DNA of 48,896 nucleotides from contig JAZRAG010000073.1 in NCBI GenBank assembly GCA_045634445.1, positions 1-48,896 on the forward strand. Reading direction: 5' to 3'. Of the stretch, positions 4,709 to 48,074 are shown one piece after another. Numbering within the stretch: the first letter of the stretch is position 1; each line of letters begins with the position of its first letter. The position numbers and the translations under genes were made by a program. Origin of the DNA: Candidatus Spyradenecus sp. (GTDB lineage: Bacteria > Verrucomicrobiota > Kiritimatiellia > RFP12 > DVOR01). Below the pieces are notes generated by a model. It saw only the letters and a list, made by a program, of their open reading frames with translations. It had not been told where the DNA came from and made no database searches.

Positions 4709-5444
4709 TTATCATTTTTTCAGATGATTGTACTATTTTTGGGGAGCCGTTTTGCATTCATATGTAATTGATTTCTAATAGCTTATTTCGGGGCTAAATT
4801 GCATTCCAAAAAATTAGTATGGGATTATGCATTTTGTACTATTGCATTTCTCCAAAATTAGTACAAAAGTGGAATAAATTCATAAAGGGTTAAGTTGCGA
4901 TTCAGTTTGAATCAGATGGAGATTGAATTTGAATCAAACTGATTCTTAATTTGAATCTTTCATTTCTTCAATACTTTGTACCATATTTGCCGTGCCATAA
5001 CTTATTCATTTACAATAACTTATCTTGAATATTTTATGACGGGCAATTTTAGGCTTAAAATCAGTACAAATTGTACTATTCATGCAAAATTTAAACAGTA
5101 CAATTTTTGGTGGGGCCAATTATTTGAAGGGGAAATTTCCGCTCGGGAAGAAATCTTAAACAGTACAATTTTTGGCCGGGGACTTTTTAGACCTGTCTAG
5201 AAAATTCTAGAAAATAGTACGAAGCTCTGAAGAAGTGAAACCATTGGAATTGAAACTTAAAACCAATGGTATTAATTTTCCGTGTTTTTGTACTAATTTT
5301 CTAGAAATGCAATAGTACAAAATGCATTGCCCCATACTAATTTTTTGGAATGCAATTTAGCCCCAAAATAAGCAATTGGAATGCAACGGCATACGGGGAA
5401 AATGCATCGCGGGTGTCATAGTACATTTACTGAAAAATTGATAA
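4709..5444. mobile_element. MITE-like or inverton-like AT-rich element: ~165-bp inverted arms (4709-4874 and 5278-5444) around a ~400-bp core
   Basis: 4781-4868 matches the reverse complement of 5286-5373 at 82/88 nt; weaker homology extends to TTATCA (4709) and TGATAA (5444); no credible gene inside. Confidence 0.7.
4958..5256 (+). repeat. Dispersed ~300-bp AT-rich element, copy 1
   Basis: Colinear with 47777-48074 and with the reverse complement of 11564-11846; shared blocks TAACTTATCTTGAATATTTTATG, GTACTATTCATGCAAAATTTAAACA, GTACAATTTTTGGCCGGGGACTTTTTAG. Confidence 0.95.
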
Positions 5445-5460
5445 CTTAAGACGTAAAACA

Positions 5461-5778
5461 GTGCATCGAGCCTTACGATCAATTGTGAAAGAAACCTCCG
5501 AGGAAGGTATTACAATTACCCATATTTTAACCGATAATGGAACAGAGTTCACGGACACCAAGAAGGTTGAGAAAATTACACGAGCAATGCTCTTTTATAC
5601 ACATGCATGTGCAGCCTGGGAAAAGGGATACATTGAGAACTCTAATCGCCTTATCCGTCGCTTCTATCCAAAAACCACCGACTTTTCTCGATTAATAGCC
5701 AAAGACATCGCGATTCTCCAGTATAAACTCGCACATTACCCACGTTCATCACAACTCAAACAAAAAGGTGCTGCATGA
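5461..5778 (+). pseudogene. IS30-family transposase, C-terminal fragment
   Basis: LTDNGTEF...FYTHACAAWEKGYIENSNRLIRRFYPKTTDF...YPR matches the IS30 integrase-core pattern; N-terminal HTH and first catalytic Asp are missing; truncated just right of the inverted arm. Confidence 0.85.
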
Positions 5779-5830
5779 AAATTTTCAATGTTTTTCCCTC
5801 CCGCCTGCGCAATTTGTCTTGCATTTCACC

Positions 5831-5845
5831 TTTTAGCCATCGAGC
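5831..5845 (+). repeat. 15-bp direct repeat, left copy (probable IS30 end)
   Basis: TTTTAGCCATCGAGC, identical at 11341-11355; lies ~55 bp after the transposase stop. Confidence 0.75.
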
Positions 5846-6410
5846 CGAGCGCCTGCGGCGTGGTACGGTGTGAAGTGGCCGCCCCTTCGGGGCTAGGGCG
5901 CCTGCGGCTGTAGAGGACCACGCGGGGCGTGGTAGAGGACGGGCTGACGCCCGTTGAAGACCGCTACGCGGTAGAGGGCGCTCTGCGAGCGCGGGAATTA
6001 CGGGCCGATGGCCTTGTGGATTAGCGCCTGCACCGCAGGCGACATGCGGAACGCTTAATAGCACAACGCTTAAAGCGGTCTGCGCCCTGGCAGACGTCAA
6101 ACGCTCCGCGTAGCCTCCTCGGGAAGCGGATGCGAAGCGAACGCTTCTTGCGCCGAGGGGCAAGCGGAGTAAGACTTGCGTTCTTGCGGAAATGCGAAGC
6201 ACCCGTCCTCGTCGTCCTACCGCGTAGCGCTCTCTTAACACTTGAGGTGAGGCGGCCTATGGCCGCAGTTGATGGTTGTCAGTTATCAGTTGACAGCGAT
6301 TGTCGTCCTCGCTGCGCTCGAGTTAGAGGATTCTTGAAGCCCTGCGCTTCCGCGGGGCGTGGGGGTGCGCAGCCCCCACATCTCCACGCCTTACACTCCT
6401 GCCGCGCACG
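5846..6410. repeat. GC-rich REP-like palindrome cluster
   Basis: CGCCCCTTCGGGGCTAGGGCG hairpin; repeated GTAGAGG starts; IR CGCTACGCGGTAG (5962-5974) / CTACCGCGTAGCG (6217-6229); heptamer run GTTGTCA-GTTATCA-GTTGACA near 6276-6296. Confidence 0.6.
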
Positions 6411-6415
6411 TCCCT

Positions 6416-7531
6416 TTACGGATGGACATAGATGGGGAGCACCGTGGTGTCGCGGTCAACCCGAAGGTGTCGCCCATTGGGAAGGATGAAGCAGGCTTTC
6501 AGCGAGACTTTTTCATTACCCGTCGCCAAGACTTTCTCGTTTAAGAAAAAGGTCGTACTGGGAGAAGGGTTCCCATCGATATACCCTACGGGTTTATCCT
6601 TAAAAGTGAGCGGGACCGTGGTTTGGTCATTGATGGTAATCTGCGCCGGACGATTGGCATCACAGCAGAGCATTACATAGTCACGAACGGCGTTTGGATA
6701 AAGGAGAAGCGAGAGCAATTGCTCTTTTTTCTTCCCTTGCAAGCGCGTGCTCAATGAGAAATAGATTCCGAAGTCGTCAGTGGAGAGCATGGGGTGCGAG
6801 GCCCAGTCTTGACAGGGCGCTGCAATCTGCAGTTTTTCCTGAGGGGTGGCGCTCCTTGGGTAAAAGACATGACGCGTGTGTTCCACGGGGACCGAGAGGG
6901 TGAAAAGGTGAGCCTTCCCATTGACAAAGACTGGCGTAATGACCGTAAGCGGCCCCTTCTCTACCTCGTTTTTGATAGGTGACTTGGAGCCCGCCGTCCA
7001 CTGATAGGTGACGCTTTCATTCGGCTTTAACGTCGTTAATGGGAGTTTGTAGTTCATCAGCGTACCCGAAACTTCCAACAACGCGTCGGTATGAGGGTTT
7101 TTGATTGTTACCTCTACCATCTTTTTGTCTGCCTGCCACGTATAGGCGACGACATCAGCAGAGATGGCGCTCGGCTCAAGCGTAAGGGAGCGTTGCGCGG
7201 CGAGGCTTTGTAGGAGTGTCCACACGTTATTGTAGGAGTTCACCGCGCCATGCCGAATCGTTTCCTTTGAACCGTAGTATTGGCAAAAACGTCGCACCGC
7301 GCGTTCGCAATAGGTTTCTCCTGAAAACTGCTCCAGCGCTTTAAGGTCCGCTTCTGGCAAGAACTGCAAGATCAAGGGTACGAAGCACGGGCGTAAGTGG
7401 TCGGGGATTTCATTACTCCAGCGTCCACTCGGCGTGAAATACTCTTGGCCGAAGCGCAGTGTAATCGTTGGCAATTCTGCAAATAGGGTGCTCACACAGA
7501 GGAGCAGACTCAACATTAAAAGACGTTTCAT
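6416..7531 (-). CDS. Secreted hypothetical protein with beta-rich, Ig-like segments
   Basis: Signal peptide MKRLLMLSLLLCVSTLFA; ATGA-coupled to the upstream gene; VEVTIKNP...LKPNESVTY segment. Confidence 0.8.
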   Translation of the reverse strand: MKRLLMLSLLLCVSTLFAELPTITLRFGQEYFTPSGRWSNEIPDHLRPCFVPLILQFLPEADLKALEQFSGETYCERAVRRFCQYYGSKETIRHGAVNSYNNVWTLLQSLAAQRSLTLEPSAISADVVAYTWQADKKMVEVTIKNPHTDALLEVSGTLMNYKLPLTTLKPNESVTYQWTAGSKSPIKNEVEKGPLTVITPVFVNGKAHLFTLSVPVEHTRHVFYPRSATPQEKLQIAAPCQDWASHPMLSTDDFGIYFSLSTRLQGKKKEQLLSLLLYPNAVRDYVMLCCDANRPAQITINDQTTVPLTFKDKPVGYIDGNPSPSTTFFLNEKVLATGNEKVSLKACFILPNGRHLRVDRDTTVLPIYVHP

Positions 7532-9426
7532 TCTTCACCCTCCAATACGCGAACAACTTTAAAGGTGCCTGGCAATGTTTTGGGGAATGTAATCGGAGGT
7601 ACGCGGACTTTCCAATCGAGGCGATAGCCGCCCTTTTGATTGTCAATTAACACATCAAAGGAGTCACTCACCCAATACGCTTGTCCACGGTTGTAGAAGA
7701 CCTTTGAGCGCGCATCACTATTGGGCATCATCCAGTCGGGATCCTTAGGGGTAAATTGCACTAAGAACGTCACGCACGACTCTGGTGGTACCACGACACG
7801 CTCAATAAGAAGGTGCTGTTTATGCCAATTTACGGCCTCTTGCCACGCTTCTCGGATTGGTAGCTGGAAGTTCTCAAAGGTGTACGTAGTGTGCTTATCT
7901 TTATTCTTCATCTTCAGCAACACGTGATGCGGTTGCTTCGCAGGATAGAATTGGATTTCAAAGGGCAAGCCTTCCCCATAAGGAGCAATCCCCTGCTGCG
8001 CACGCATTTCAATCGTGAGCGATTGAACGGTGAGTTCGCGCGACTGATTGTCATCTGGCCAAATCGCATTTAATTCTTCCAACAAGTTGACCAATATAGG
8101 CGACGCCACGCCATTGGCGCTTTCAACCCGTTTACGCACGACATCGCGGAAGGTTTCGCCATTGGCATTACGTTGGCGCGGGTCTGCGCCACAGGCCAAC
8201 ATCCAACGCACCTTATCTGCCGCATTTTTATCATCTAATTTGACTTTAAACAAATCCAGTTTGAGCTGTTCGCCACTTTCTTTTGCGAAGGATAAAATCA
8301 AATCCAAGGACTCTTTATCGGCCCCTTTAGCGTATGTCCAGACCCAAAGAATATTGTTCACTTCATGGCTTACATGATGATAGGACTTACCTGCAGAATC
8401 CGTGCCGATTTGAACTGAAGTCGGCACTTTAGCATTACGAAGAACGCGCAGGGTATTGGCGCTACCAGGGCGCTGCAACGCATCATCGTACAAGTTTGCG
8501 CCATCCTTACTCAAGTCAAAGAGATTGAGCGAAAGGGCATACTCCAAGCACTTGTAAGAGTGGTGCTTGGCCATAGAGATCAAGGCCCAGGGCGTTTTCG
8601 TTATTTGAAGCCCTACTCCAGCCTCCACCAACAATTTCAAACAGTCTGCGCTATCTTGATAATACTTCCAATGCGTAAAATCTGCCGCCGTCCATCCGTC
8701 AACACTCTTCGCATGTTTATCCACCCCGCTGGCAAGCAAGAGTTTGACGCAGCGAACCGCGTTCTTTTCTGCGGCAGTCATGAGCGCCGTTTTCTTATAT
8801 TGCGGTTCTGCCTTATTGATATCAGCGCCATGCTCAATTAAGACGGCTAAGACGTCATCGCGGTCATGAAACGCCACTGCTGCAGCAGGAAACCACCGCG
8901 TCGTGCTCATGTAATTCACATCGGCGCCCAATTCAAGCAGCGTCTTCACCGCCTCAACCTGGCCAAACTCTGCAGCCGCTAGCAAAGGATTCGTGGTTCC
9001 CATCGCGATAGGTTTATTCACATCAGCGCCAGCTTTCGCCAACACCCGAATCATCTCCACATAACCGCGACGCGCCGCATACACCATCGGAGTGTCTCCG
9101 CGCTGCGAAAAGAATTCTGGATCAAAGCCCTTCTGAATTAACACCTCCAAACACTTTGGACGGTTGTTTTCAATCGCATAACAGGCCATCGTCATGCGAA
9201 TGTAGGGAATCATCGAGTCTGCCGTATACGTATTTTTTAACAATTCAGCATCGTCATTCTGCAAAATCGTCAAATCTCGCGAATATTGGTCAAAGACAAG
9301 ATCTGGACGATCATGTTGGTCCGTGTATTCCAAGACTTCCTCCCACGGAATCACTGGCGGGCGCGCCTGTTCAGCCCAGAGGCCAACGCTCAGGGAGAGC
9401 GCCGACAAAAGTAACATCTTCTTCAT
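7528..9426 (-). CDS. Secreted ankyrin-repeat protein with C-terminal beta-rich domain
   Basis: Signal peptide MKKMLLLSALSLSVGLWA (ATG 9426 overlaps upstream TGA); GDTPMVYAA, NPLLAAAEFG, KTALMTAA, GADVN ankyrin motifs. Confidence 0.9.
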   Translation of the reverse strand: MKKMLLLSALSLSVGLWAEQARPPVIPWEEVLEYTDQHDRPDLVFDQYSRDLTILQNDDAELLKNTYTADSMIPYIRMTMACYAIENNRPKCLEVLIQKGFDPEFFSQRGDTPMVYAARRGYVEMIRVLAKAGADVNKPIAMGTTNPLLAAAEFGQVEAVKTLLELGADVNYMSTTRWFPAAAVAFHDRDDVLAVLIEHGADINKAEPQYKKTALMTAAEKNAVRCVKLLLASGVDKHAKSVDGWTAADFTHWKYYQDSADCLKLLVEAGVGLQITKTPWALISMAKHHSYKCLEYALSLNLFDLSKDGANLYDDALQRPGSANTLRVLRNAKVPTSVQIGTDSAGKSYHHVSHEVNNILWVWTYAKGADKESLDLILSFAKESGEQLKLDLFKVKLDDKNAADKVRWMLACGADPRQRNANGETFRDVVRKRVESANGVASPILVNLLEELNAIWPDDNQSRELTVQSLTIEMRAQQGIAPYGEGLPFEIQFYPAKQPHHVLLKMKNKDKHTTYTFENFQLPIREAWQEAVNWHKQHLLIERVVVPPESCVTFLVQFTPKDPDWMMPNSDARSKVFYNRGQAYWVSDSFDVLIDNQKGGYRLDWKVRVPPITFPKTLPGTFKVVRVLEGEE

Positions 9427-11297
9427 TTGGCCCCCCATTCCATCACATCGGCAGCCTCAATTTCAACCGCCTTACAACCACGTTTGTAGAGAATTTCAAG
9501 CGGCGGCAACTCCTCCTGCGAATACGCAACCTGCTTGCCATATCCACCAGAAGACCACTCTAAATGCGTTCCCTTGGGGAAATTCAATGTTGTCAGCACC
9601 GCGTCTCCATCTTCATTCCCTTCGCCACCATCCAAACGGAAGTGTGCGTAAGCCTCCTGCAGAGGCGCTGCGACCAATTCAAAGGGCGGCAACACCAACT
9701 GTTCATTCTCGCCCACTTGCAACGTCAGCGCCTTTACAGACATTGAAAGGTTACCCGTTGTAGAAGGATTCTTCAAGCGAATCTCTAATGCCGCCGGGCC
9801 TTTCGCGGGGACGTGAAGCGTTAAGATGGGGTCAATCTTTCCGACCACGCTCACCTTAGAAACATCTGTAATCGGCTTCACCCAATTCGTTAAAATGCTA
9901 TTCAAACGCTCCTCTGCATAAATCTGCGCAATACGCTTGACCACGCGGTCATAACGCGCAGTCCCAAATCCTGGCACAGACTTATCAAGCGCCAATTTGT
10001 CTAAAAGCGTCCACCCCTTCTCATTACGCACCATCAAATTCGCACGACGCCCCTTTAAAACGCGAAAACGTGAAAAGGCGCGTTCGCTATCCGTAAAGTC
10101 TAAATCAACCACCTTCCATACGAGCGGTTTGAATTCACCCGCTGTGCGCGCGCACGTTTCAATCGCAGTAACAATGTTATCGCGTGGAGCACCCTTCTGC
10201 AGCCAAAAGGCTTGTAAAGCCGCAACATCCCGCTGTTCTACTGGAATTAAATTCCATAAGGGCAGAACCATACTGGCATTGGCAGCCCCCTCAGGCGCAT
10301 TCTGAATCGCACACCGCAAAGCAGGCCACACATCTTTTGGGAGCAATTGGCGTTCCTTTAAAAAGTCAATCAACGTAGGCGACCCAGCCGCCAGAACTTT
10401 ATTGAGTGCATCATCTTGGAGAGTAGCCCCCTTCGCACACAATTCGTCAAATAAGGCATAAGCCTCCTTCTCAAGCGCGATGGACAACACCGTTTCGCCT
10501 GAACGATTCGCAACAGTGACATCCGCACCCTTTTCAAGCAATGTCTTAACCATCTGCTTCGCATTGCACCGTACAGCCAACAAGAGTGGCGTATCGCCTG
10601 TACGCTTGGATGCACGGTTAATCTCCGCACCCGCCTCAATCAATGCGTTTAACGCAAAATCCTTCTCCGCGCACATCATCAGCGGCGTAATGCCATCAGC
10701 ACCCTCAATATTCACATTAGCGCCAGCTGCAATTAAACGGTTCACACAGGCCGTCTGCCCCTTCGCGACCGCGATCATCAGCGGCGTACGCATCCGCATC
10801 CCATCCCACGCATCAACCTGCGCCTTCTGTTCAAGCAAGACCTCCATCACCTCAGTATTGCCACGAAATGCCGCGTAATGCAAAGGCGTCTGCCCTTGAA
10901 AATCCTGCATCATCACATCCGCACCCATTTCAATCAAACCCGCGATACAGCCCACGCGCTCCTGAGAAATCGCCTCCGCAAAAATCACATCTAACGCATT
11001 TGGTGCGACTTTCTCAGCCAAGAGTAAGTCACTCAATGCGCCAAAATCATCCGCAGCCAAGTGAGACAATACATCCTCGCGAATCTCCGCAGGAATATCC
11101 CCAAACACACGAAATGCCGCACCCGAATCTTGACCAAGATTCATCGAATACTGCAAATCCGACAAATCTCCCAAATCAAAGACAAAATGCGCTTCACCTA
11201 AAGCAGACGAAGCCGCCATTAACATAAAAACTGCACCTATCCAACCTTTCATACCCAACATCCCTTCAAAAACACGTCGTAAAATAAAACTACTCAT
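9423..11297 (-). CDS. Secreted ankyrin-repeat protein with C-terminal beta-rich domain
   Basis: GQTPLHYAA, RTPLMIAV, GITPLMM, GDTPLLLA ankyrin repeats; signal-like MKGWIGAVFMLMAASSALG (true start may be a downstream Met). Confidence 0.9.
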   Translation of the reverse strand: MSSFILRRVFEGMLGMKGWIGAVFMLMAASSALGEAHFVFDLGDLSDLQYSMNLGQDSGAAFRVFGDIPAEIREDVLSHLAADDFGALSDLLLAEKVAPNALDVIFAEAISQERVGCIAGLIEMGADVMMQDFQGQTPLHYAAFRGNTEVMEVLLEQKAQVDAWDGMRMRTPLMIAVAKGQTACVNRLIAAGANVNIEGADGITPLMMCAEKDFALNALIEAGAEINRASKRTGDTPLLLAVRCNAKQMVKTLLEKGADVTVANRSGETVLSIALEKEAYALFDELCAKGATLQDDALNKVLAAGSPTLIDFLKERQLLPKDVWPALRCAIQNAPEGAANASMVLPLWNLIPVEQRDVAALQAFWLQKGAPRDNIVTAIETCARTAGEFKPLVWKVVDLDFTDSERAFSRFRVLKGRRANLMVRNEKGWTLLDKLALDKSVPGFGTARYDRVVKRIAQIYAEERLNSILTNWVKPITDVSKVSVVGKIDPILTLHVPAKGPAALEIRLKNPSTTGNLSMSVKALTLQVGENEQLVLPPFELVAAPLQEAYAHFRLDGGEGNEDGDAVLTTLNFPKGTHLEWSSGGYGKQVAYSQEELPPLEILYKRGCKAVEIEAADVMEWGAK

Positions 11298-11305
11298 ACA
11301 CTCAT

Positions 11306-11334
11306 ATCATACAACACATCTCCGCAACTGTCCA
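11306..11334 (-). promoter_or_regulatory. Candidate promoter of the ankyrin operon
   Basis: TGGACA-17bp-TATGAT on the minus strand, next to the 15-bp repeat. Confidence 0.45.
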
Positions 11335-11340
11335 CTCTAT

Positions 11341-11355
11341 TTTTAGCCATCGAGC
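11341..11355 (+). repeat. 15-bp direct repeat, right copy
   Basis: TTTTAGCCATCGAGC, identical to 5831-5845. Confidence 0.75.
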
Positions 11356-11563
11356 TGAAAAGTGCACAATGTATTTGCGCAGGGAAAAAGGTGAAGTCAA
11401 GAAAGAGAGTTCAACAGTCAAGGAAAATGAAGGGAGATATCTCTACGCCCCTCGGGGGGCGGCGCACCAAGATGAAAAATGTCAGTATTCCTGCTATGAT
11501 TTGTGTTGCGAAAAACAAACAAGAGCGGAGTACTGACGTGCAAAAGAATACCAAATCTAAACA

Positions 11564-11846
11564 CATTGTTTTCACTTCTTCGGCCTTTCGTACTATTTTC
11601 TAGAATTTTCTAGACAGGGCTAAAAAGTCCCCGGCCAAAAATTGTACTATTTAAGATATCTTCCCGAGAGGAAATTTCCCCTTAAAATAATTGGCCCCCA
11701 AAAAATTGTACTGTTTAAATTTTGCATGAATAGTACGAATTGTACTGATTTCAAGCCTAAAGTTGCCGGCCATAAAATATTCAAGATAAGTTACTGTAAA
11801 TGAATAAGTTACGGCTGGGCAAATATAGTACGGAATAATGAAGAAT
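11564..11846 (-). repeat. Dispersed ~300-bp AT-rich element, copy 2 (inverted)
   Basis: Reverse complement is colinear with copies 1 and 3; extra perfect 14-bp IR AATATAGTACGGAA (11822-11835) / TTCCGTACTATATT (11876-11889). Confidence 0.95.
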
Positions 11847-11946
11847 TAATACCTAATGATTTCACTTTCCAATATTTCCGTACTATATTGAAAACTGAAA
11901 TATGTTATGGCGCAAAAAGATTTGGGCACGGCAAAGACAAGTGTCT

Positions 11947-12076
11947 ACTACTCTATTGCAACATACTCACGAGCACTCTCATACCCACACACGAACATAC
12001 ACATGGTAAGGACAATTCAAATCACGAACATCCTCACGGAGAAATGCCGCATAACCATTTACATTTGAATGAGTAA
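11947..12076 (+). pseudogene. Frameshifted His-rich C-terminal tail remnant (resembles tails of some EamA/DMT or metal-binding proteins)
   Basis: TTLLQHTHEHSHTH, a frameshift near 11988, then HEHTHGKDNSNHEHPHGEMPHNHLHLNE*; no upstream gene body. Confidence 0.55.
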
Positions 12077-12153
12077 TGCATTTTCTTATATACATTAATC
12101 TAGCGCCACTTTTTAGTCTTTACAATTCTCTGTTTTAGGCAATTTTTAATCAT

Positions 12154-12219
12154 TTTTGAAAACAGGTTGTTTTGACCTTTAAAAAGGCTTGTTTTGATTT
12201 TGAAAACAGGTTGTTTTGT
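12154..12219 (-). repeat. 3 x 22-bp iteron-like tandem repeat (TCAAAACAACC family)
   Basis: TTTTGAAAACAGGTTGTTTTGA / CCTTTAAAAAGGCTTGTTTTGA / TTTTGAAAACAGGTTGTTTTGT. Confidence 0.85.
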
Positions 12220-12258
12220 TTTTTAGTCATAAAAGGCGCTTTCTCGCGCGTATGCGTG

Positions 12259-12287
12259 TAGACAAGCGCGCGTGCGTTTGCTATAAT
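12259..12287 (+). promoter_or_regulatory. Promoter of the folP-ligA operon (extended -10)
   Basis: TAGACA-17bp-TATAAT with TG at 12279-12280; ATG is 7 nt after the -10. Confidence 0.75.
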
Positions 12288-12294
12288 GTGCGTT

Positions 12295-13170: not shown

Positions 13171-13171
13171 C

Positions 13172-35608: not shown

Positions 35609-35629
35609 GATTCATATCCTTCCTAAAAC

Positions 35630-36847: not shown

Positions 36848-36876
36848 TTGCATTTTGCGAGGTTATGTGGTATTTT
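36848..36876 (+). promoter_or_regulatory. ppdK promoter
   Basis: TTGCAT-17bp-TATTTT with extended -10 TG. Confidence 0.55.
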
Positions 36877-36967
36877 ATTCCTTTCACCCCGAATGGGGAG
36901 ACAAGTCTTTTTTGTCTAAGAATTTCGAATGCCTTCTATAGTGCACTAAGGAAGAAAGAAAGAAAAA

Positions 36968-39763
36968 ATGAGTAAGGAAAAATACGTTTATTTCTTCGGC
37001 GGCGACGCCTCTGAAGGAAACGGTTCGATGAAGATGCTCTTGGGCGGTAAGGGTGCTAACCTCGCCGACATGGCATCAATGGGCCTCCCCGTGCCCCCCG
37101 GCTTCACGATTACTACTGAAGCTTGCGGTAAGTATTACGAAATCGGCGAAGAACAGCTCTTCGCTAAGATCATGCCTGAAGTTGATGTCGCATTGGCTAC
37201 CCTCCAGGAAGTGACCGGCAAGACCTTCGGTAAGGGTCCCAATCCCCTCTTGGTCTCCGTCCGCTCTGGCGCTGCAGTCTCCATGCCCGGCATGATGGAC
37301 ACCGTGCTCAACCTCGGTCTCAACCCCGAAACCGTGGAAGCAATGATCGTCAAGACGGGCAACAAGCGCTTCGTCATGGACAGCTACCGCCGCTTCATTC
37401 AGATGTTCGGTAACGTTGTGATGGGCATGGAACACCACGACTTCGAACACGAACTCGAAACCGTCAAGGCCACCAAGGGCGTTAAGCTCGACACCGAACT
37501 CTCCGCTGAAGACCTCGAAGAAGTGATCGCTCGCTACAAGAAGGTCATCAAGGCTCAGCTCGGAAAGGACTTCCCCACCGACGCTTACGAACAGCTCAAG
37601 ATGGGTATCCGCGCTGTGTTCAGCTCCTGGAACAACCCCCGCGCTATCAAGTATCGCGAACTCAACGACATCCGTGGTCTCGCTGGTACCGCAGTGAACG
37701 TCCAAACGATGGTGTTCGGTAACAGCGGTAACAACTCCGCTACCGGCGTGGCATTCTCCCGCGACCCCTCCACTGGTGACAACTCCTACTTCTACGGCGA
37801 ATACCTCATCAATGCACAGGGTGAAGACGTTGTGGCTGGTATCCGTACGCCTCAGGAAATCACCATCGCTGGTTCCCGTGAATGGGCTAAGCGCGCTGGC
37901 ATCTCCGAAGAAGAACGCCTCGCTAAGTACCCCTCTCTCGAAGAAGCAATGCCTGAAGTCTTCAAGGAATTCGACGCTATCCGCGCAAAGCTCGAACTCC
38001 ACTACAAGGACATGCAGGACATGGAATTCACCATCGAAGATGGTCGTCTCTACATGCTCCAGACCCGTAACGGCAAGCGCACCGCTGCAGCAGCTGTTCG
38101 TATCGCAACCGACCTCGTGAAGGAAGGCCTCATCGACGAACAGACCGCAGTGCTCCGCGTCGAACCTCAGCAGCTCGATCAGCTCCTCCACCCCGTGTTC
38201 AACGCTGTGGCAGAAAAGAACGCTAAGACCATCGCTACTGGCCTCCCCGCATCTCCTGGCGTGGCTACCGGTAAGGTTGTCTTCACCGCTGAAGACGCTG
38301 AAACTTGGGCTAAGCTTGGCAAGAAGGTCATCCTCTGCCGTGCAGAAACCTCTCCTGAAGATATCGCTGGCATGGTCTCCGCTCAGGGTATCCTCACCGC
38401 TCGTGGTGGTATGACCTCCCACGCAGCTGTGGTGGCTCGCGGTATGGGTAAGTGCTGCGTGGCTGGTTGCGGTGACGCACTCATCGACGCTAAGGCTAAG
38501 ACCATCAAGATCGGCGACGTTGTTCTCCGTGAAGGCGATTGGATCTCCCTCAATGGTTCCACCGGTAAGGTTTACGAAGGCCGCATCGAAACCCGCGACC
38601 CTGAACTTACTGGTCCCTTCGCTGAAATCATGGCCCTCGCTGACAAGTACCGCACCATGGGCGTCCGCACCAATGCTGATACTCCCCGTGACACGCAGGT
38701 CGCTGTTCGCTTCGGCGCTGAAGGTATCGGCCTCTGCCGTACCGAACACATGTTCTTCTCCGAAGACCGCATCATCGCTTTCCGCCGCATGATTCTCGTG
38801 GCTGAAAAGGTGAAGAAGCTCAAGGAAGCCCTCGCAATGGCCGCTTCCGACGCTGAAAAGGCAGCCATCCAGGCACAGCTCGAAGCTCCTCTCGCACAGT
38901 ACAATGCTGCGCTCGAAACGCTTCTCCCCTTGCAGCGCTCTGACTTCGAAGGCATCTTCCAGGCACTCGACGGCCGCGAATGCACCGTCCGCTTGCTCGA
39001 CCCGCCCTTGCACGAATTCGTCCCGCACGACGAAGCTGGCCAGGCCGAAATGGCCAAGGTCATGGGCATCTCCGTGGAAGAAGTCAAGCAGCTCGTGGAA
39101 GAACTCCATGAATTCAACCCGATGCTCGGTCACCGCGGTTGCCGTCTCGGCATCTCCTACCCTGAAGTCACCGAAATGCAGGTCCGCGCTATCTGCGAAG
39201 CTGCTGCCAACGTCCAGGGCGCTCGCCCCGAAATCATGGTTCCGTTGGTCGGTAACGTCAAGGAACTCCTCTCTCAGAAGCAGATCATCGTTGACACGAT
39301 CGCTGCAGTTGAGAAGGAACGCGGCATCAAGCTCGAAGTGCTCATCGGTACGATGATCGAAGTGCCTCGTGCAGCTCTCACCTCCGACGAAATCGCTAAG
39401 GAAGTTGACTTCTTCTCCTTCGGCACGAACGACCTCACGCAGACCACCTGCGCCTTCTCTCGTGACGACGCTGGTAAGTTCCTCCGCGACTACGTCTCCA
39501 AGGGCTTCTACGAATACGATCCCTTCATCGTGCTCGACCAGGCTGGCGTTGGTAAGTTGATGAAGTTCGCCGTTTCCCAGGCTAAGGAAGTCAACACAGG
39601 CATCCGCCTCGGCATCTGCGGTGAACACGGTGGCGAACCCCGCTCTGTGGAATTCGCTAACACCATCGGCTTGACCTATGTGTCCTGCTCTCCTTACCGT
39701 GTGCCGATCGCACGCCTCGCTGCAGCTCAGGCTGCAATCAAGGCTGCTCGCGCTGCTAAGTAA
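36968..39763 (+). CDS. ppdK: Pyruvate, phosphate dikinase
   Basis: LGGKGANL, SVRSGA, GGMTSHAAVVARG (phospho-His), GLCRTEHMF, SFGTNDLTQ, ICGEHGG; strongly biased codons. Confidence 0.98.
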   Translation: MSKEKYVYFFGGDASEGNGSMKMLLGGKGANLADMASMGLPVPPGFTITTEACGKYYEIGEEQLFAKIMPEVDVALATLQEVTGKTFGKGPNPLLVSVRSGAAVSMPGMMDTVLNLGLNPETVEAMIVKTGNKRFVMDSYRRFIQMFGNVVMGMEHHDFEHELETVKATKGVKLDTELSAEDLEEVIARYKKVIKAQLGKDFPTDAYEQLKMGIRAVFSSWNNPRAIKYRELNDIRGLAGTAVNVQTMVFGNSGNNSATGVAFSRDPSTGDNSYFYGEYLINAQGEDVVAGIRTPQEITIAGSREWAKRAGISEEERLAKYPSLEEAMPEVFKEFDAIRAKLELHYKDMQDMEFTIEDGRLYMLQTRNGKRTAAAAVRIATDLVKEGLIDEQTAVLRVEPQQLDQLLHPVFNAVAEKNAKTIATGLPASPGVATGKVVFTAEDAETWAKLGKKVILCRAETSPEDIAGMVSAQGILTARGGMTSHAAVVARGMGKCCVAGCGDALIDAKAKTIKIGDVVLREGDWISLNGSTGKVYEGRIETRDPELTGPFAEIMALADKYRTMGVRTNADTPRDTQVAVRFGAEGIGLCRTEHMFFSEDRIIAFRRMILVAEKVKKLKEALAMAASDAEKAAIQAQLEAPLAQYNAALETLLPLQRSDFEGIFQALDGRECTVRLLDPPLHEFVPHDEAGQAEMAKVMGISVEEVKQLVEELHEFNPMLGHRGCRLGISYPEVTEMQVRAICEAAANVQGARPEIMVPLVGNVKELLSQKQIIVDTIAAVEKERGIKLEVLIGTMIEVPRAALTSDEIAKEVDFFSFGTNDLTQTTCAFSRDDAGKFLRDYVSKGFYEYDPFIVLDQAGVGKLMKFAVSQAKEVNTGIRLGICGEHGGEPRSVEFANTIGLTYVSCSPYRVPIARLAAAQAAIKAARAAK

Positions 39764-39777
39764 GAATCAGCTAAAAG

Positions 39778-39817
39778 CAAAAACAAAGAGCACCGTTCGC
39801 GGTGCTCTTTGTTTTTT
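39778..39817 (+). terminator. ppdK terminator
   Basis: AAAGAGCACCG-TTCG-CGGTGCTCTTT-GTTTTTT. Confidence 0.9.
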
Positions 39818-42929: not shown

Positions 42930-43147
42930 TTTAATAAACTCCGTAGCAACGTTTTAGCAATCTTGCCTATACATTAACACATATAGCGTTTTTTCGCAAT
43001 GGCAAATCTCTCTAAAAACACACTAAACAGACGCTTTTTTCACTTCCCAAAGCTCCTTTCAATCTCGCCCTTACGTTGACTTCGCCCAAACGCCGCCTCC
43101 CCTCTCCCTCCTCTGCAAACTTTTTTCAACAATTTTCAAAAAAGTAC

Positions 43148-43176
43148 TTGCATTCAAGAAACGCATTTGGCATAAT
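43148..43176 (+). promoter_or_regulatory. tRNA promoter
   Basis: TTGCAT-17bp-CATAAT with TG at 43168-43169. Confidence 0.7.
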
Positions 43177-43196
43177 ATGTCGCGTTTTACGTTTAT

Positions 43197-43270
43197 TGCC
43201 TCATTGTGTAACGGTAGCACAACTGACTCTGGATCAGTTTGTCAAGGTTCGAATCCTTGTGAGGCAACCA
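43197..43270 (+). tRNA. tRNA-Gln (anticodon CTG)
   Basis: Acceptor stem TGCCTCA/TGAGGCA; anticodon arm ACTGA-CTCTGGA-TCAGT; T-loop GGTTCGAATCC; encoded CCA. Confidence 0.97.
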
Positions 43271-43278
43271 TCTGAAAG

Positions 43279-43313
43279 AAAGTCTGTAGAGCGCGTCTCT
43301 GCGGACTTTTTTT
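43279..43313 (+). terminator. Terminator after tRNA-Gln
   Basis: AAAGTCTGTAGAG...CTCTGCGGACTTTTTTT. Confidence 0.7.
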
Positions 43314-43335
43314 GATTTAGGGAAGGAGCCCAACC

Positions 43336-43818
43336 ATGGTTGAAAGTCTTTTGGATATTCTGCGTTCCAATGCAAAGGAATCGCCTGAAAATATGGCGCG
43401 TTTGCTTGGTGTAGACGTTGCTGAAGTGGAAGCTGCCATTGCGAAGTTAGAAGAAGATGGCGTCATCCGCGGCTGGCAGGCCATCATCAATGAAGACCTC
43501 CTCCCCCATGATTACGTTACTGCAGCCATTGAAGTGCGTGTCACCCCTGAACGCGATGGCGGCTTCAACCGCATTGCCGAAGAAGTCAGCCGCTTCGAAG
43601 AAACCGAAGCTGTCTACTTGATGAGCGGCGCCTATGACCTTCTTCTCTTCGTCAGCGGCAAGAACCTCCTCTCCGTGGCACGTTTCGTGAGCGAAAAGCT
43701 CTCCACCATCCGCGGAATCATCTCCACCGCTACCCACTTCCGTTTGAAAACTTACAAGCAGAACAACGTCTTGATGGCAAAGCCCCAGGACGATGGTCGC
43801 CTTGTTGTGAGCCCCTAA
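43336..43818 (+). CDS. Lrp/AsnC family transcriptional regulator
   Basis: N-terminal HTH...LEEDGVIRG; YLMSGAYDL; STATHF. Confidence 0.92.
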   Translation: MVESLLDILRSNAKESPENMARLLGVDVAEVEAAIAKLEEDGVIRGWQAIINEDLLPHDYVTAAIEVRVTPERDGGFNRIAEEVSRFEETEAVYLMSGAYDLLLFVSGKNLLSVARFVSEKLSTIRGIISTATHFRLKTYKQNNVLMAKPQDDGRLVVSP

Positions 43819-43819
43819 T

Positions 43820-44986
43820 ATGGATCCACACGACTATTTAGCCCGTCATATCGTGGATTTGCCAAAGAGTGGCATCCGCGAATTCTTTGACATCGTTAGC
43901 ACGCGCACAGGCGTGGTCTCCCTCGCAATTGGCGAACCCGACTTTGACTCCCCTTGGCACATTCGTGAAGCCGCAGCGAAGTCCTTAGACCGCGGTTGCA
44001 CCCATTACACTGGCAATGCTGGCTTAATGGAGTTGCGCACCGCTATCGCAGGCTATGTCAAAGACAACTTCGGTGGCACCTATGACCCCGCCACCGAAAT
44101 CCTCATCACCGTGGGCGCGTCCGAAGGTCTTGATATTGCCCTTCGCGCCATCTTAAACCCCGGCGATGAAGTACTCTATCATGAGCCCTGCTTCGTGAGT
44201 TATGGCCCCGAAATCGCCATGGCACACGGCGTACCTGTGCCCGTGGAAACGCGTGTAGAAGACAACTTCCGCCTCTCGATTGATGCTTTGGAAGCCAAGG
44301 TCACCCCGCGCACCAAGGCCATCATGCTCAACTTCCCCAACAATCCCACAGGCGCCGTCTTGGAACGCGCCGATGTGGAGGCCATTGCAGCCTTCGCCAT
44401 TCGTCACAATTTGATTGTGATCTCTGACGAAATCTACGCAGAAATGACTTGGGGTGGCAAAAAGCACGTTTCTTTCGCATCAATCCCTGAATTGCGTGAC
44501 CGCCTCATCTTGCACCACGGCTACTCCAAGTCTTGGGCAATGACTGGCTTCCGCATGGCCTATGTCTGCGCTCCCAAGTGGATGATGGATACCATCTTGA
44601 AGATTCATCAGTACGCTATCATGTGCGCGCCCACCACCTCACAGTACGCTGCACTTGAGGCTATGCGCCACCCCGCAGAAGACATGAAGCCCATGCTCCA
44701 GGCCTACGAACAGCGTCGCAACTTCCTGCGCGCCGCCTTCGCAGACGCAGGCATCCCGATGCACAATCCCGCGGGCGCCTTCTATGCCTTCCCGCAGATT
44801 GAAAAGTTTGGTCTTACCTCGCGCGAATTTGCCGTGCGCCTCCTTGACGCCGAAAATGTCGCGGTCGTTCCTGGCACCGCCTTTGGTGCTTGCGGCGAAG
44901 GCTTTGTACGCTGCTCCTACGCCACAGGCCTTGAGCAACTCAAAGAAGCCGTCACCCGCATTGCGCGCTTCGTCAAAACCCTTTAA
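43820..44986 (+). CDS. PLP-dependent aminotransferase, class I/II
   Basis: GEPDF, PNNPTG, SDEIY, GYSKSWAMTGFR, VVPGTAFG. Confidence 0.95.
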   Translation: MDPHDYLARHIVDLPKSGIREFFDIVSTRTGVVSLAIGEPDFDSPWHIREAAAKSLDRGCTHYTGNAGLMELRTAIAGYVKDNFGGTYDPATEILITVGASEGLDIALRAILNPGDEVLYHEPCFVSYGPEIAMAHGVPVPVETRVEDNFRLSIDALEAKVTPRTKAIMLNFPNNPTGAVLERADVEAIAAFAIRHNLIVISDEIYAEMTWGGKKHVSFASIPELRDRLILHHGYSKSWAMTGFRMAYVCAPKWMMDTILKIHQYAIMCAPTTSQYAALEAMRHPAEDMKPMLQAYEQRRNFLRAAFADAGIPMHNPAGAFYAFPQIEKFGLTSREFAVRLLDAENVAVVPGTAFGACGEGFVRCSYATGLEQLKEAVTRIARFVKTL

Positions 44987-45006
44987 TTACGGAGACACTT
45001 CACACT

Positions 45007-45900
45007 ATGCCTCCTCCTACCACCACTAGCAAGCCCAAAATCGCCATCGTCACTCGCGATGAAGAAGGCATCTCTTTACAAGACTTCCTCGCCGGCCGCC
45101 TCAATGTGACAAAGCGCGCCGCAAAAACGATGATTGATGCACGCGTTGTTTGGGTCAATCGCAAACTCGTCTGGATCGCACGTCACGTGCTCAAGCCCGG
45201 CGACAAAGTTGCCTTCGTGGTCCAACGTAGCACTGGTGCTAAGCAAGATAAATCCACCGAAACACGCCCCCACATCCGCGTGCTCTGGCAGGATGAATGG
45301 TACCTCGCTGTTGACAAACCCGCAGGCGTTCTTACACAGGGTCGTAACTCCGCAGAAGAAATTCTTCGCGTACAAGAGCACAATCCGCAGATCGCAGCCG
45401 TCCACCGACTCGACCGCGAGACCTCTGGCGTCATTCTCTTCAGCAAAAACGAAGAAGCACACGAAGCCGCCATTGCGATGTTCAAGACCCACCGCGTCAT
45501 TAAGTTCTATAACGCCATCGCCTCCGGCAGTGTTGACCGACTCTCCTCGACCCTCACCGAAACCCTCGATGGCGAACGCGCCGTCACCCATATGCGCCGT
45601 TTGCAGGCCACGGCAGACGCCACCTTCCTCTCTCTGCGCATTGAAACGGGTCGTACCCACCAGATTCGCCGACACCTCTCTGGCATCCGCCACCCCGTGA
45701 TTGGCGACCGTCAATACGGCATGAAGCACTCCGATGACCCCCGCGTTCTCTCGGTGACCCGCCAAATGCTTCACGCGAGCGAAATTGAGCTCCCCCACCC
45801 CATGATTACGGGCGTGCACATCAAAGCACACGCCCCTCTTCCCGCCGACTTCCGAGCCGCCCTCAAACTCTTTGGCCTCGGCAAGCGTGGTAAAAAGTAA
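45007..45900 (+). CDS. RluA-family pseudouridine synthase
   Basis: VDKPAG, HRLDRETSG, TGRTHQIR, QMLHA. Confidence 0.93.
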   Translation: MPPPTTTSKPKIAIVTRDEEGISLQDFLAGRLNVTKRAAKTMIDARVVWVNRKLVWIARHVLKPGDKVAFVVQRSTGAKQDKSTETRPHIRVLWQDEWYLAVDKPAGVLTQGRNSAEEILRVQEHNPQIAAVHRLDRETSGVILFSKNEEAHEAAIAMFKTHRVIKFYNAIASGSVDRLSSTLTETLDGERAVTHMRRLQATADATFLSLRIETGRTHQIRRHLSGIRHPVIGDRQYGMKHSDDPRVLSVTRQMLHASEIELPHPMITGVHIKAHAPLPADFRAALKLFGLGKRGKK

Positions 45901-45917
45901 GCTCAAGTCGCACAACT

Positions 45918-45950
45918 AGAAAACGCCCTCCACCAGGGCGTTTTTCTTTT
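45918..45950 (+). terminator. Terminator after the RluA-family gene
   Basis: AAAACGCCCT-CCACC-AGGGCGTTTTTCTTTT. Confidence 0.85.
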
Positions 45951-45980
45951 ATCCCGTCATCCCAAAAATATACCTCATTA

Positions 45981-46063
45981 AAAGACTGCCCATGTCGAAA
46001 GTAAAGACTGCCCATGTTGAGGTTAGACATGGTCAGTCTTTTATTTGAATACAGCCAGTCTTT
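45981..46063. repeat. 22-bp-period direct and inverted AAAGACTG array
   Basis: AAAGACTGCCCATGT at 45981 and 46003; inverted ACATGGTCAGTCTTT at 46027 and CAGTCTTT at 46056. Confidence 0.8.
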
Positions 46064-46084
46064 TAGCCGAAAAATAGCCCCAAA

Positions 46085-46172
46085 TGAAAACAAGCCTTTT
46101 TGAACCTCAAAACAACCTCTTTTCAATTTCAAAACAACCTGTTCTGAACTTCAAAACAACCCTTTTTGTAAT
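46085..46172 (+). repeat. 4 x 22-bp iteron-like tandem repeat (TCAAAACAACC family)
   Basis: Units start at 46085, 46107, 46129 and 46151; reverse complement of the 12154-12219 family. Confidence 0.85.
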
Positions 46173-46630
46173 ATCGTGAATAATGAATAAAATAAAGGAG
46201 TGAACTCAAAAAAAATAAAAGTACGGAAAGGCTCAATAATTTAACCCCGTAGCAGACGTCCTAAATGCCTCTTTGCATAATTTCTTGAAGCAAAGAGAGA
46301 TTTCATTTTCAAACCCAATGAGTTTAGCGGCGAGGATGCTTGGATTCGGACGACATCGGGCTGAGTTGGGTGCGAAATCGCGTGGGATGTGACGGACGTT
46401 TACGTTGTGTTCCCCTTCAAAAGACGGAAGGAACTACGACTGATTAAACCACGAATAGTGCAAATTCACACGAATGGTGCGAGAACGATTACAAAGTCCT
46501 TGCTTGTGATAGGGAAAAAGGTGTAGGATAGTGGTGTCCTTGGAGAATTGGGGTGATTGGATGAAAGAATATTGATGAGAACCAACCGGACTTCTGACGA
46601 CTTGATGTTTTGATTTAGTAGAGGAAAGAA

Positions 46631-47620
46631 ATGGCATCAATGATCAAGTATTCTCTTGTTATCTTTTTTGTTTATTGGGTACATCTCTGTGCCTTTTCAT
46701 TAACGTTAGGCGAAGCACGGTATTTAGCGAGCGAACGCGCATCTGCTACATTATGGAACGAACTTGAGAAGTCTAAGAAATTAAGCAACTATAGTGCCTT
46801 AAAAGAGATTTATGACAAAAAATTCTCGCCCTTAGAATATCTCATTTCACATGAACAAGAATTGTCGCCAGAAGCATTAAACAGTGCCTATGAAGATGCC
46901 ATTTTGACGGCGGCGGCAATGAGAGATTCCGAATTAGAATTAGCGATTTTGGCTCGCTGGAAGCAGAGACAAAATCGTAATGATTTCCACATCAGGCTCT
47001 TTGAAAACGGATATCGTAATCGAACGATTTCTTTTGAGAACACCTTGTTTCAATGGATTCTTCCAGATAATGGTAAAGTAAATAGAAAAGAACTCTTGAA
47101 CCATTACGATATTTTACGCGAAGAGCAGTGTCATGATATGTCGTCAAGTTTCTGGCAACAGCACCACGATTGTAATGAGAATGGTTTATGCAACAAGGTG
47201 CAGTACCATGAGAGTTCAAAAACGATCACTACATTGTATTTGCGTGACCGTGATAACGGATTGACGCACAAGTTATTTGAATTTGAACATAATTACTACG
47301 GGCAGCAACTTTTTGTCTTACCATCATCGGATGGCAAGAAACTTGCACTTCTCCATGCAAGCATAAATAAATTGGGCGTTAAGATCGTAAAAGAGAGAAT
47401 CGGAGGCGTGGAATGCGCTGTACCTCAGTTGATTTCAGAAGATGTTTTAGAACTTTATGTAGTCGATCTTCAAGCACCAAAAACTCAGACTAAATATGAC
47501 GTTTTACAAAAATGGAATGCTTCATTTTTAAAGAAAAACAATTTAAAGCGATTTAGTTGGCCTAATAGTTCTCAAACACCAATCGTAGATTTTGCACCTT
47601 CCAATCGCTGTTTTGAATGA
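46631..47620 (+). CDS. Secreted hypothetical protein (low GC)
   Basis: 329-aa ORF, GAGG RBS, hydrophobic N-terminus; AT-richer than the core genes. Confidence 0.75.
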   Translation: MASMIKYSLVIFFVYWVHLCAFSLTLGEARYLASERASATLWNELEKSKKLSNYSALKEIYDKKFSPLEYLISHEQELSPEALNSAYEDAILTAAAMRDSELELAILARWKQRQNRNDFHIRLFENGYRNRTISFENTLFQWILPDNGKVNRKELLNHYDILREEQCHDMSSSFWQQHHDCNENGLCNKVQYHESSKTITTLYLRDRDNGLTHKLFEFEHNYYGQQLFVLPSSDGKKLALLHASINKLGVKIVKERIGGVECAVPQLISEDVLELYVVDLQAPKTQTKYDVLQKWNASFLKKNNLKRFSWPNSSQTPIVDFAPSNRCFE

Positions 47621-47776
47621 ACGAAGAGGTGGGAACGAACACGATTCCTGCGTCTCTTGGAATGTACGATAGAAACACGGCCAAACGCGTTCTCTCGGAA
47701 AACGCCACGTATTCTATTGCACTTTTGCGTTGAATAACACGGTAATCCAAATGCGATTGCCACCAACTTTCGGCGA

Positions 47777-48074
47777 TTTCATTTCTTCAATACTTTGTAC
47801 TCTATTTGCCTGGCCGTAACTTATTCATTTGTAATAACTTATCTTGAATATTTTATGGCGGGTAATTTTAGGCTTAAAAACAGTACAATTTGTACTATTC
47901 ATGCAAAATTTAAACACTATAAAATTTTACGGACCAACACTTTAAAAGGTAAACTTCCTCTCGGGAAGCAATCTTAAATCGTACAATTTTTGGCCGGGGA
48001 CTTTTTAGACCAGTCTAGAAACCTTTAGAAAATAGTACGAAAGGCCGAAGAAATGAAACCAATGGTTTTGAAAC
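47777..48074 (+). repeat. Dispersed ~300-bp AT-rich element, copy 3
   Basis: Colinear with 4958-5256 from TTTCATTTCTTCAATACTTTGTAC to TTGAAAC. Confidence 0.95.

Follow-up and report, generated by a model that had tools for sequence, protein, structure and literature searches.

The genome stretch analysed here (the window; 48,896 nucleotides of Candidatus Spyradenecus sp., GenBank assembly GCA_045634445.1, contig JAZRAG010000073.1, forward strand) contains three copies of a dispersed repeat of about 283 bp that carries several AGTAC(A/G)A motifs. We propose that these repeats are probably an orphan MITE (miniature inverted-repeat transposable element), a 283-bp non-coding and non-autonomous DNA transposon. 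We base this on their terminal inverted repeats, sharp ends, flanking duplications of 6-8 bp, dispersed copies in seven of 28 genomes of the genus and lack of coding capacity. The same traits support the 'non-autonomous mobile element' that had been suggested from the letters of the window without database searches (the sequence-only reading). It is best classed as an element with duplications mostly of 7 bp, a preference for small palindromes and frequent action in pairs.

The genome from which the window derives (G000) comprises 2.06 Mb in 136 contigs and has a G+C content of 50%. It was compared with the available genomes of the genus (28, G000 included) and with 16 genomes from other families of the order. 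The ends of the element were defined by aligning the 17 full G000 copies together with 100 bp of flank, and in this alignment the similarity begins and ends abruptly on both sides. The copies in the window are the following:

4958-5240, + strand: MITE copy A, 283 bp, with ends taken from the 17-copy alignment; used as the query that gives 29 matches in the genome
11570-11851, - strand: MITE copy B, 282 bp, with the variant left end TATTAATTCTTC at 11851 going down
47777-48058, + strand: MITE copy C, 282 bp, more diverged than any other G000 copy (end branch 0.16)

All three colinear copies recognised in the sequence-only reading exist, and the genome search and the alignment confirmed that they belong to one family. 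Their boundaries needed correction, as the right ends had been placed about 16 bp too far out and copy B was offset by about 6 bp because of its variant left end. The window copies are 86-90% alike (A and B 90% identity, A and C 86%). The 29 matches to copy A in G000 consisted of 17 full copies, 280-284 bp long and 85-94% identical, and 12 partial matches, which represent about eight partial or internally deleted copies. In G000, the end motif was confined to pairs spaced by 280-284 bp and to deleted copies. G012 and G023 gave 18-21 matches each. Three copies in 49 kb turned out to be a local excess: the density of the window would predict about 100 copies genome-wide, and with only 17 full copies in G000 the expectation of a high genome-wide number was not borne out. 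For further analyses we used a set of 60 distinct copies (17 from G000, 22 from G012, 10 from G023, eight from JAFYWN01 records, two from G013 and one from G015).

The G+C content of the element is 32%, compared to 50% for the genome. Each end consists of TTTCAYTTCTTC, five variable bases and TTYGTACTAT, and the two ends are in inverted orientation, forming imperfect terminal inverted repeats of about 27 bp. The left-end motif recurs inverted at the right end in every full copy, and the variant left end of copy B is shared by eight of the 60 copies, copy B included. In copy A, these features are located as follows:

4958-4984, + strand: left terminal inverted repeat (TTTCAYTTCTTC, five bases, TTYGTACTAT)
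4998-5023, + strand: paired TAACTTAT boxes, 18 bp apart, conserved in the 60 copies
5063-5222: AGTAC(A/G)A sites at 5063 (+), 5071 (-), 5097 (+), 5162 (+) and 5216 (+)
5214-5240, + strand: right terminal inverted repeat (ATAGTACGAA, five bases, GAAGAARTGAAA)

Six AGTAC(A/G)A sites are conserved per element when the site within the left repeat is included. Two of them point inward from the left end and three inward from the right end; the sixth is the left half of the central palindrome AGTACAA-T-TTGTACT and has the same direction as the three on the right. In copy A, the sites at 5063 and 5071 build the palindrome AGTACAA-A-TTGTACT. TTAAAYAGTACAATTTTT occurs twice in direct orientation in the interior, which also contains the right-end site ATAGTACGAA. 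In the window, AGTACRA occurs 28 times compared to 7.26 expected (sd 2.87; 0 of 100 shuffles reach 28), with 14 occurrences in copies A-C and five in a related repeat beside copy A. The box TAACTTAT occurs seven times compared to 0.96 expected, six of these being the paired boxes. Both motifs had been singled out in the sequence-only reading and both are enriched over expectation. Among the 60 copies, the most invariant columns are the inverted repeats with their tips, the six GTAC cores and the TAACTTAT region, and the stretches between the conserved sites come in several interchangeable versions.

Exact direct repeats of 6-8 bp flank eight of the 60 single copies, compared to about 1.25 in shuffled controls. 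When one mismatch was allowed, the number was still eight, compared to 2.5 in the shuffles. The duplicated sequences are AATCTTTA, GGATGA, CCATGC, TGCCTGC and, four times, CAATAGG. Furthermore, a duplication is often divided over two copies, with one repeat beside each. The 7-mer on the left of one copy is identical to the 7-mer on the right of another in 41 of 882 comparisons within genomes, compared to 10 of 2,658 between genomes, and a random match is expected about once in 16,000 comparisons. Seven of the matches within genomes lie outside the common CMAWWGG type:

TGTTACA: G023, L039 and L040, 7 kb apart
GGTACCA: G000, C35 and C78
CCCCTTG: G000, C59 and C83
GCGCTTG: L054 and L068
CCTATTG: found twice
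TGCCTGC: C45 tandem, where it forms the spacer between the joined ends; counted among the seven

When the halves of split duplications are rejoined they make small palindromes, for instance AATAT-GGTACCA-TATT. The simplest reading is that two copies and the DNA between them were inserted as one unit, although flank exchange between copies would yield the same pattern. Copies A and B of the window were considered as such a composite and rejected, since their outer flanks, TTGAATC and CCTAATG, do not match.

The flanks also point to a preferred target. A half-palindrome resembling repetitive extragenic palindromes (REP; CMAWWGG followed by TTTSAAA) adjoins 22 of the 120 element ends, compared to 1.2% of random positions. 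The CMAWWGG 7-mer adjoins 11 left and 12 right ends of the 60 copies, against a background of 1%, and is found on both sides in four of them, which is close to independence. In the window, the palindromes themselves are found near copy B:

12150-12220, no strand assigned: REP-like palindromic units with 100-143 other matches in the genome, half-units of which adjoin many element ends

REP-like DNA had already been reported next to the element, and the 100-143 further matches of this unit in G000 substantiate that description. An abundant REP-like repeat is also present at 46080-46170. Taken together, the abundant REP-like palindromes look like a favoured landing site of the element.

The element was found in seven of the 28 genomes of the genus (G000, G005, G012, G013, G015, G023 and G041) and in none of the 16 genomes from other families of the order. 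A scan for the exact pattern in one genome per prokaryotic species gave 45 loci, all of them in five metagenome-assembled genomes (MAGs) titled Kiritimatiellae bacterium or Candidatus Spyradenecus sp., which were obtained from the guts of ruminants and other animals. In the maximum-likelihood tree built from the 60 copies, the genome label changes 26 times (minimum 5, shuffled mean 32.2). Copies from different genomes are thus interleaved in this tree, of which the branch supports are rough since the bootstrap had not settled (correlation 0.892). Ordinary genes of the window share 67-73% DNA identity with those of G023, G041 and G012; carB reaches 78-86%, and the S12/S7 and pyruvate phosphate dikinase genes 84-95%. 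Element copies, on the other hand, are up to 94% alike between species that are about 70% identical, and the family must therefore have spread much later than the species split. The pyruvate phosphate dikinase gene (36968-39763, within 36866-39789) is 94-95% identical to its counterparts in G041 and G023, while its flanking genes are 72-73% identical, suggesting either very strong constraint or a recent exchange of this housekeeping gene.

Logan contigs from four public gut-metagenome runs (X1, X3 and X6 are labels of such runs) were placed on window positions 44000-48896 at 90% likeness, and only the parts of this region covered by contigs were used as evidence. In X1 and X6, the summed contig depth over 47772-48099 is 380-1000 for the element and 4-12 for its flanks. 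This depth reflects many copies in many genomes, and the family is thus very abundant in these two gut metagenomes.

Next to the element we found two stretches of DNA that are shared almost unchanged with other species:

5241-11219, no strand assigned: cassette 1, with a repeat of a second family (fam2), an IS30 fragment, two orphan open reading frames (ORFs) and two ankyrin genes; matches G041
46295-47774, + strand: cassette 2, 1,480 bp, with an orphan 329-aa gene; ends at the left tip of copy C

The alignment to G041 is gap-free over 4958-11219. Within it, cassette 1 shows 17 differences in 5,979 bases (99.7% identity), whereas copy A shows 29 differences in 283 bases (89.8%), the last of which lies 12 bp from the right tip. 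The housekeeping genes beside the cassette are 69% identical to those of G041, and the shared stretch stops exactly at the ATG of the ankyrin gene. The G041 counterpart of copy A matches L057:901-1183 over the 90 bases shown, and L057:901-1183 falls in a clade with 99/98 support from which copy A is excluded; therefore, different subfamily members lie beside the same cassette. Contigs C33 and C2 of G041 (L215 and L216) are identical over more than 9 kb including both cassette flanks and represent one locus assembled twice, not two insertions. On the left of copy A, the BspA-type gene (580-4658) has 88% identity with a gene of G041:C15, and this contig is not the one that carries the ankyrin cassette. 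The two sides of copy A therefore have different histories.

Cassette 2 starts with TTTCATTTTCAA at 46301, a sequence close to the left tip of the element. Its orphan gene was found only in G000 and G023 (97% amino-acid identity), and over 46300-47776 the DNA of the two genomes is about 98% identical. Between copy C and its counterpart in G023 there are about 43 differences, the first of them 31 bp inside the element. In G023, the cassette is located between two copies of the same orientation, with a right tip and the spacer CAATGG ahead of its left edge; G000, on the other hand, has no copy on the left. In the metagenome runs X6 and X3, a right tip, a short spacer and the start of cassette 2 follow each other as in G023. 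Moreover, a contig of run X1 (depth 5.6, 52 letters on the shorter side) joins 46294 directly to 47775. This allele lacks the 1,480-bp cassette and has the same flank right beside the left tip of the element; the joint is contig evidence with its right side in a repeat, and it speaks for the existence of this allele, not for its frequency.

The element copies that adjoin the two cassettes are only 83-90% alike, and the nearly identical cassettes, common to species with ordinary genes about 70% identical, appear from these comparisons to have been exchanged recently. The sequence-only reading had also considered a recombination platform at cassette hot spots. This is supported as an effect and not as a dedicated mechanism of recombination: two cassettes of 98-99.7% identity stop within 12-31 bp of the tips, and an allele without one of them exists in X1. 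Possibilities for the cassette movement are composite transposition, deletion between repeated tips, conversion of whole elements, or site-specific recombination at joined ends in which two 12-bp tips enclose a 7-bp spacer (12-7-12).

Several observations weigh against a MITE. Firstly, 52 of the 60 single copies have no flanking duplication, a low yield given a median end branch of 0.064, and this scarcity has to be explained by composites or flank exchange; the splitting of duplications between two copies is part of the explanation. Secondly, no clean pair of empty and filled alleles of the element itself was found in one attempt across the genus, made with a copy that has an 8-bp duplication: only the neighbouring gene matched (about 70%), the intergenic DNA being too diverged. 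Thirdly, no transposase gene was found between element-type ends in G000 or in the five carrier relatives G012, G023, G015, G013 and G005. Viral contigs gave 10 single, unpaired end matches without MITE homology and without a transposase, and in metagenome contigs 18 of 83 loci had MITE homology and all paired ends were MITE-sized. Fourthly, the IS30-, IS481-, IS4- and IS256-type elements considered as parents have ends unlike those of the element. Fifthly, none of seven Pfam families (six of transposases, plus the tyrosine recombinases) tracks the seven carriers; other transposase families were not included in this search. Finally, every genome is a MAG, and for most copies outside G000 the flanks are limited to about 1 kb.

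The profile searches found DDE_Tnp_1 in 9 of the 28 genus genomes, rve in 16, Transposase_mut in 3, ISL3 in 5, IS1595 in 0, IS110 in 5 and Phage_integrase in all 28, the latter mostly with two matches per genome, none of them carrier-specific. Two wider pairs of ends were found. In G015:C2 (L084 1029-2863), a full copy, an exported ORF of 408 aa (signal-peptide-like N-terminus, without Pfam match) and a 5'-truncated copy follow each other, the ends being 1.8 kb apart. In G012:C16, ends 7 kb apart enclose BspA genes and one ORF, weakly matching GIY-YIG, that was found at no other place. Other candidates were rejected. Seemingly unpaired ends in G012 were diverged copies of the element, TTTCAYTTTTTCAAYC-type ends belong to other MITE-like repeats of 160-320 bp, and the large repeats of G000 are paralogues of BspA, RHS, DUF1232 and BNR genes and not transposases. 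The orphan 329-aa protein of cassette 2 was treated as cargo, since it occurs in G000 and G023 only, its N-terminus is hydrophobic and Pfam gave no match. The IS30-family element has ends that read GGTGAAATGCAAG and a duplication of about 14 bp (CTCGATATCGTTTT), with no similarity to the MITE. A derivative of an IS110/IS1111-type element was rejected as well, since PF01548 is present in five of the 28 genomes and in two of the seven carriers, and the element has inverted repeats and duplications, both absent from such elements, which use a DEDD transposase. Membership of integron attC sites or gene cassettes, in which imperfect palindromes lie beside promoterless genes and an IntI integrase acts, was rejected on length (283 bp compared to 57-141 bp for attC) and on the lack of a carrier-specific tyrosine recombinase, the attC box structure being left out of this comparison. 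A search for dif-like sites with a short consensus gave eight matches, compared to 15 for the reversed control, and hence no usable signal.

If the repeats are a MITE, a transposase acting in trans would bind the inverted repeats and the AGTACRA sites and would cut the target with a 7-bp stagger. It could use the outer ends of a pair of copies, and whatever lies between would then move as a composite. Dispersed copies and end-like sequences would then offer points of breakage and joining for the gain, loss and transfer of cassettes between species. The assembled carrier genomes do not seem to encode this enzyme, which probably resides on a vector that is unbinned or seldom present; alternatively, the family may now be inactive in these genomes.

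A wider reading, which we put forward only tentatively, is that this family and its low-copy relatives with the same type of ends are the cis-acting ends of a genus-wide system of cassette exchange. A vector-borne transposase, or a host recombinase acting on the 12-7-12 joined ends, would load, unload and transfer secreted and orphan genes between species of gut Kiritimatiellae that are otherwise only about 70% identical. Such a system would resemble integrons and dif modules in function but would be built on MITE ends and REP-like palindromes.

The strongest competitor of a MITE, although we regard it as unlikely, is a gene-less integrative module moved by site-specific recombination. Here the joined 12-bp tips with their 7-bp spacer would be the core, the internal AGTACRA motifs would act as sites of the arm type or for accessory proteins, the REP-like palindromes would provide the partner sites in the chromosome, and recombination between such sites would swap the DNA beside the tips. 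Junctions of a right end, a spacer of 6-8 bp and a left end do occur, namely in the C45 tandem (TGCCTGC), ahead of cassette 2 in G023, X3 and X6, and next to copy B:

11852-11889, - strand: right-end-like fragment with an 8-bp spacer (TCATTAGG), adjoining copy B at its left end

The favoured target palindromes have arms that begin and end like the tips (TTTSAAA / TTTCA). The shortage of duplications, the near independence of the target motif on the two sides, the cassette boundaries at tips with adjoining copies from other subfamilies, and the missing transposase would all fit such a module. However, the duplications are unrelated in sequence (from AATCTTTA, GGATGA, CCATGC and TGCCTGC to TGTTACA, GGTACCA, CCCCTTG and GCGCTTG), and staggered cutting of arbitrary targets therefore fits better than a matching overlap region. 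In addition, no tyrosine recombinase is carrier-specific, Phage_integrase being present in all 28 genomes, and joined ends are also produced by DDE elements that transpose via circles or dimers.

Far less probable is a platform that serves the host, in which AGTACAA sites recruit a DNA-binding protein of the host, for instance a regulator or nucleoid protein, and the copies are retained for this purpose. Conservation is indeed higher at the GTAC sites and in several internal blocks than in the remaining element, but such conservation of cis-acting sites is expected if only transposition-competent copies leave descendants. Copies are 85-94% alike across species with ordinary genes 67-73% alike, and in two species they occupy matching places upstream of folP and beside the orphan gene. 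The copies at these matching places, however, belong to different subfamilies and hence are not conserved orthologues, and the sharp ends, inverted repeats, duplications and patchy presence in seven of 28 species are traits of mobile DNA. The neighbouring genes, moreover, show no orientation bias. By a crude rule with a minimum ORF length of 100 aa, the closest ORF to the right of the 60 copies lies on the + strand in 26 cases, on the - strand in 26 and absent in eight, and on the left side the numbers are 19, 25 and 16. A role as promoter or 5' untranslated region was rejected on the same lack of bias, with no promoter scan made.

We also analysed the coding and folding properties of the repeats. 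The longest stop-free runs span 45-83 codons with variable ends, so that there is no capacity to encode a transposase. The statement of the sequence-only reading that the copies have no conserved ORF was mostly right; the part that needs amending is a frame that starts at the first base of the element and stays free of stops over 50-83 codons in 49 of the 60 copies. This frame ends at differing places between copies and has no evident start context or ribosome-binding site, although third-position variation is raised over 24 codons after an internal ATG (permutation p = 0.023). It is noted here but not taken as a gene. Single copies fold better than shuffles, with z = -5.0 on the + strand and z = -7.7 on the - strand, but a good fold on both strands arises from the palindromes in the DNA. 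Together, the 60 copies give a weak consensus fold (-23.15 kcal/mol, with a covariation term of -0.64 kcal/mol), and compensatory changes were seen in two of 46 predicted pairs. An Rfam scan at gathering thresholds found tRNA only, and in a permissive E-value scan of 4700-5500 the best matches were far below the cut-offs. With no covariance-model match and no covariation that supports the fold, membership of a structured RNA family was rejected. A small structured RNA or small peptide, for which the folds, the stop-free frame and the third-position signal might speak, is thus highly improbable given the two-stranded fold, the weak consensus, the variable frame ends and the same lack of orientation towards neighbouring genes. 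In searches of Rfam and of plasmid records, where no similarity was found, the earlier failure to recognise a known insertion sequence (IS) end or RNA family held up; ISfinder and phage records were not searched.

The proposed MITE can be placed next to several known systems. In Acinetobacter, pairs of 439-bp MITEs around class 1 integrons reportedly form MITE-bounded composite transposons. In the same way, two copies of our element bracket cargo with one duplication outside (TGTTACA in G023; GGTACCA and CCCCTTG in G000), but the cargo consists of genes for secreted and orphan proteins, not of resistance genes, and cassettes also change beside single copies. IS110/IS1111-type and other elements are known to land in REP-type palindromes. 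The element shares this preference for short extragenic palindromes, but unlike IS110-type elements it has clear terminal inverted repeats and 7-bp duplications, and an IS110-type transposase is present in only two of the seven carriers. It is also much longer than REP units, which in REP/REPIN systems go with a single-copy Y1 transposase (RAYT) and here appear to be its targets. With lambda-type attP sites and gene-less integrative modules it has in common a size of about 250-280 bp, a palindromic joined core and repeated motifs in both arms, but here there is no dedicated integrase and the flanking repeats vary in sequence.

As described in excerpts of a review (PMC10969869) and a survey (PMC11602168), bacterial MITEs are small, non-coding and intergenic, have terminal inverted repeats and target duplications, occur in many diverged or internally deleted copies and depend on a transposase in trans. 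Our element resembles them in all of these respects. It departs from the typical bacterial MITE, as portrayed in the same excerpts, in that no parent IS was found, most single copies are without duplication, and one 7-bp motif is repeated six times at internal and subterminal positions. Chunjie of Geobacter uraniireducens, a full-length element of 235 bp according to an excerpt of PMC10969869, is of similar size, also has copies of diverse size and sequence, and is likewise not known to have an obvious partner; it differs in its ends and in the length of its duplication. In the papers searched, we found no report of such repeats in Kiritimatiellae or of this family in the phylum, and in the main text of the survey 'Kiritimatiell' and 'Verrucomicrob' have 0 occurrences each, although its supplements could list the family (PMC11602168).

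Further repeats and remnants of insertion sequences surround the copies A and B:

4709-4885, + strand: fam2 copy, a second repeat family of about 176 bp with the same end type (TATCATTTTTTC..GTACTAT)
5270-5444, - strand: inverted fam2 copy, the first part of the cassette common to G041
5428-5821, + strand: 3' part and right end of an IS30-family element
11355-11569, + strand: left end of the same IS30-family element, truncated by copy B

Several low-copy repeat families of 160-320 bp have the same end type, T[TA]TCAYTTYTTC..YGTACTA, and one enzyme therefore seems to serve a small superfamily. Repeats with this end type are also found in G000 at C83:6353, C80:15228 and C130:18129, and in L218-L221. 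What had been described as gene debris beside the element is the 3' part of the IS30-family element at about 5428-5834. Copy B interrupts the left part of such an element, the IS homology reaching up to 11569. A complete copy is present in G023:C43 (L122 1105-2367), with a 435-aa ORF that scores 124.6 bits on NCBIfam NF033563, and the targets of this IS are near-palindromic, with a duplication of about 14 bp (in G023, CTCGATATCGTTTT). In the window, the right and left IS30 parts (5428-5836 and 11341-11569) face the ankyrin cassette from either side, and the 15-mer TTTTAGCCATCGAGC adjoins both in direct orientation, an 'inside-out' arrangement. Many contigs of G000 and G023 end within the IS30-family element. 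An IS481-like element (G000 C78:16391-17675; L222 2064-3470) is 91% identical between G000 and G023; in G000 it is truncated (284-aa ORF compared to 468 aa) and lies 1 kb from a MITE copy. An IS4 element and IS256-type remnants are also present, with ends unlike those of the MITE.

The neighbouring genes in the window are a BspA-type gene with leucine-rich repeats (595-4581), ankyrin genes (7528-11297) and the orphan gene without Pfam match (46631-47620). The association with secreted accessory genes seen in the sequence-only reading is thus true for the window, but it is looser genome-wide. Of the 29 ORFs flanking the 17 copies of G000, three code for proteins of the BspA, InlB-repeat or ankyrin type, Pfam gave no match for 14, and the remaining 12 contain other domains, counts that have no matched background and may include ORFs of 90-130 aa that are not genes. 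These other domains are mostly of the housekeeping kind, and examples among them are folP, guanylate kinase, a semialdehyde dehydrogenase, a Xer-like recombinase and a sigma-54 activator. The copies of G000 thus tend to sit between housekeeping and orphan DNA.

The family, with its consensus, ends and target preference, is now defined for the annotation of uncultured gut Kiritimatiellae. Such repeats break assemblies, and in Kiritimatiellae they risk being mistaken for regulatory or RNA elements. The element marks sites where surface and secreted accessory genes (BspA-type, ankyrin and orphan genes) are gained and lost. Finding its enzyme would reveal the workings of gene flow in an animal-gut phylum about which little is known, and the system would gain broader interest if that enzyme proved not to be a classical transposase.

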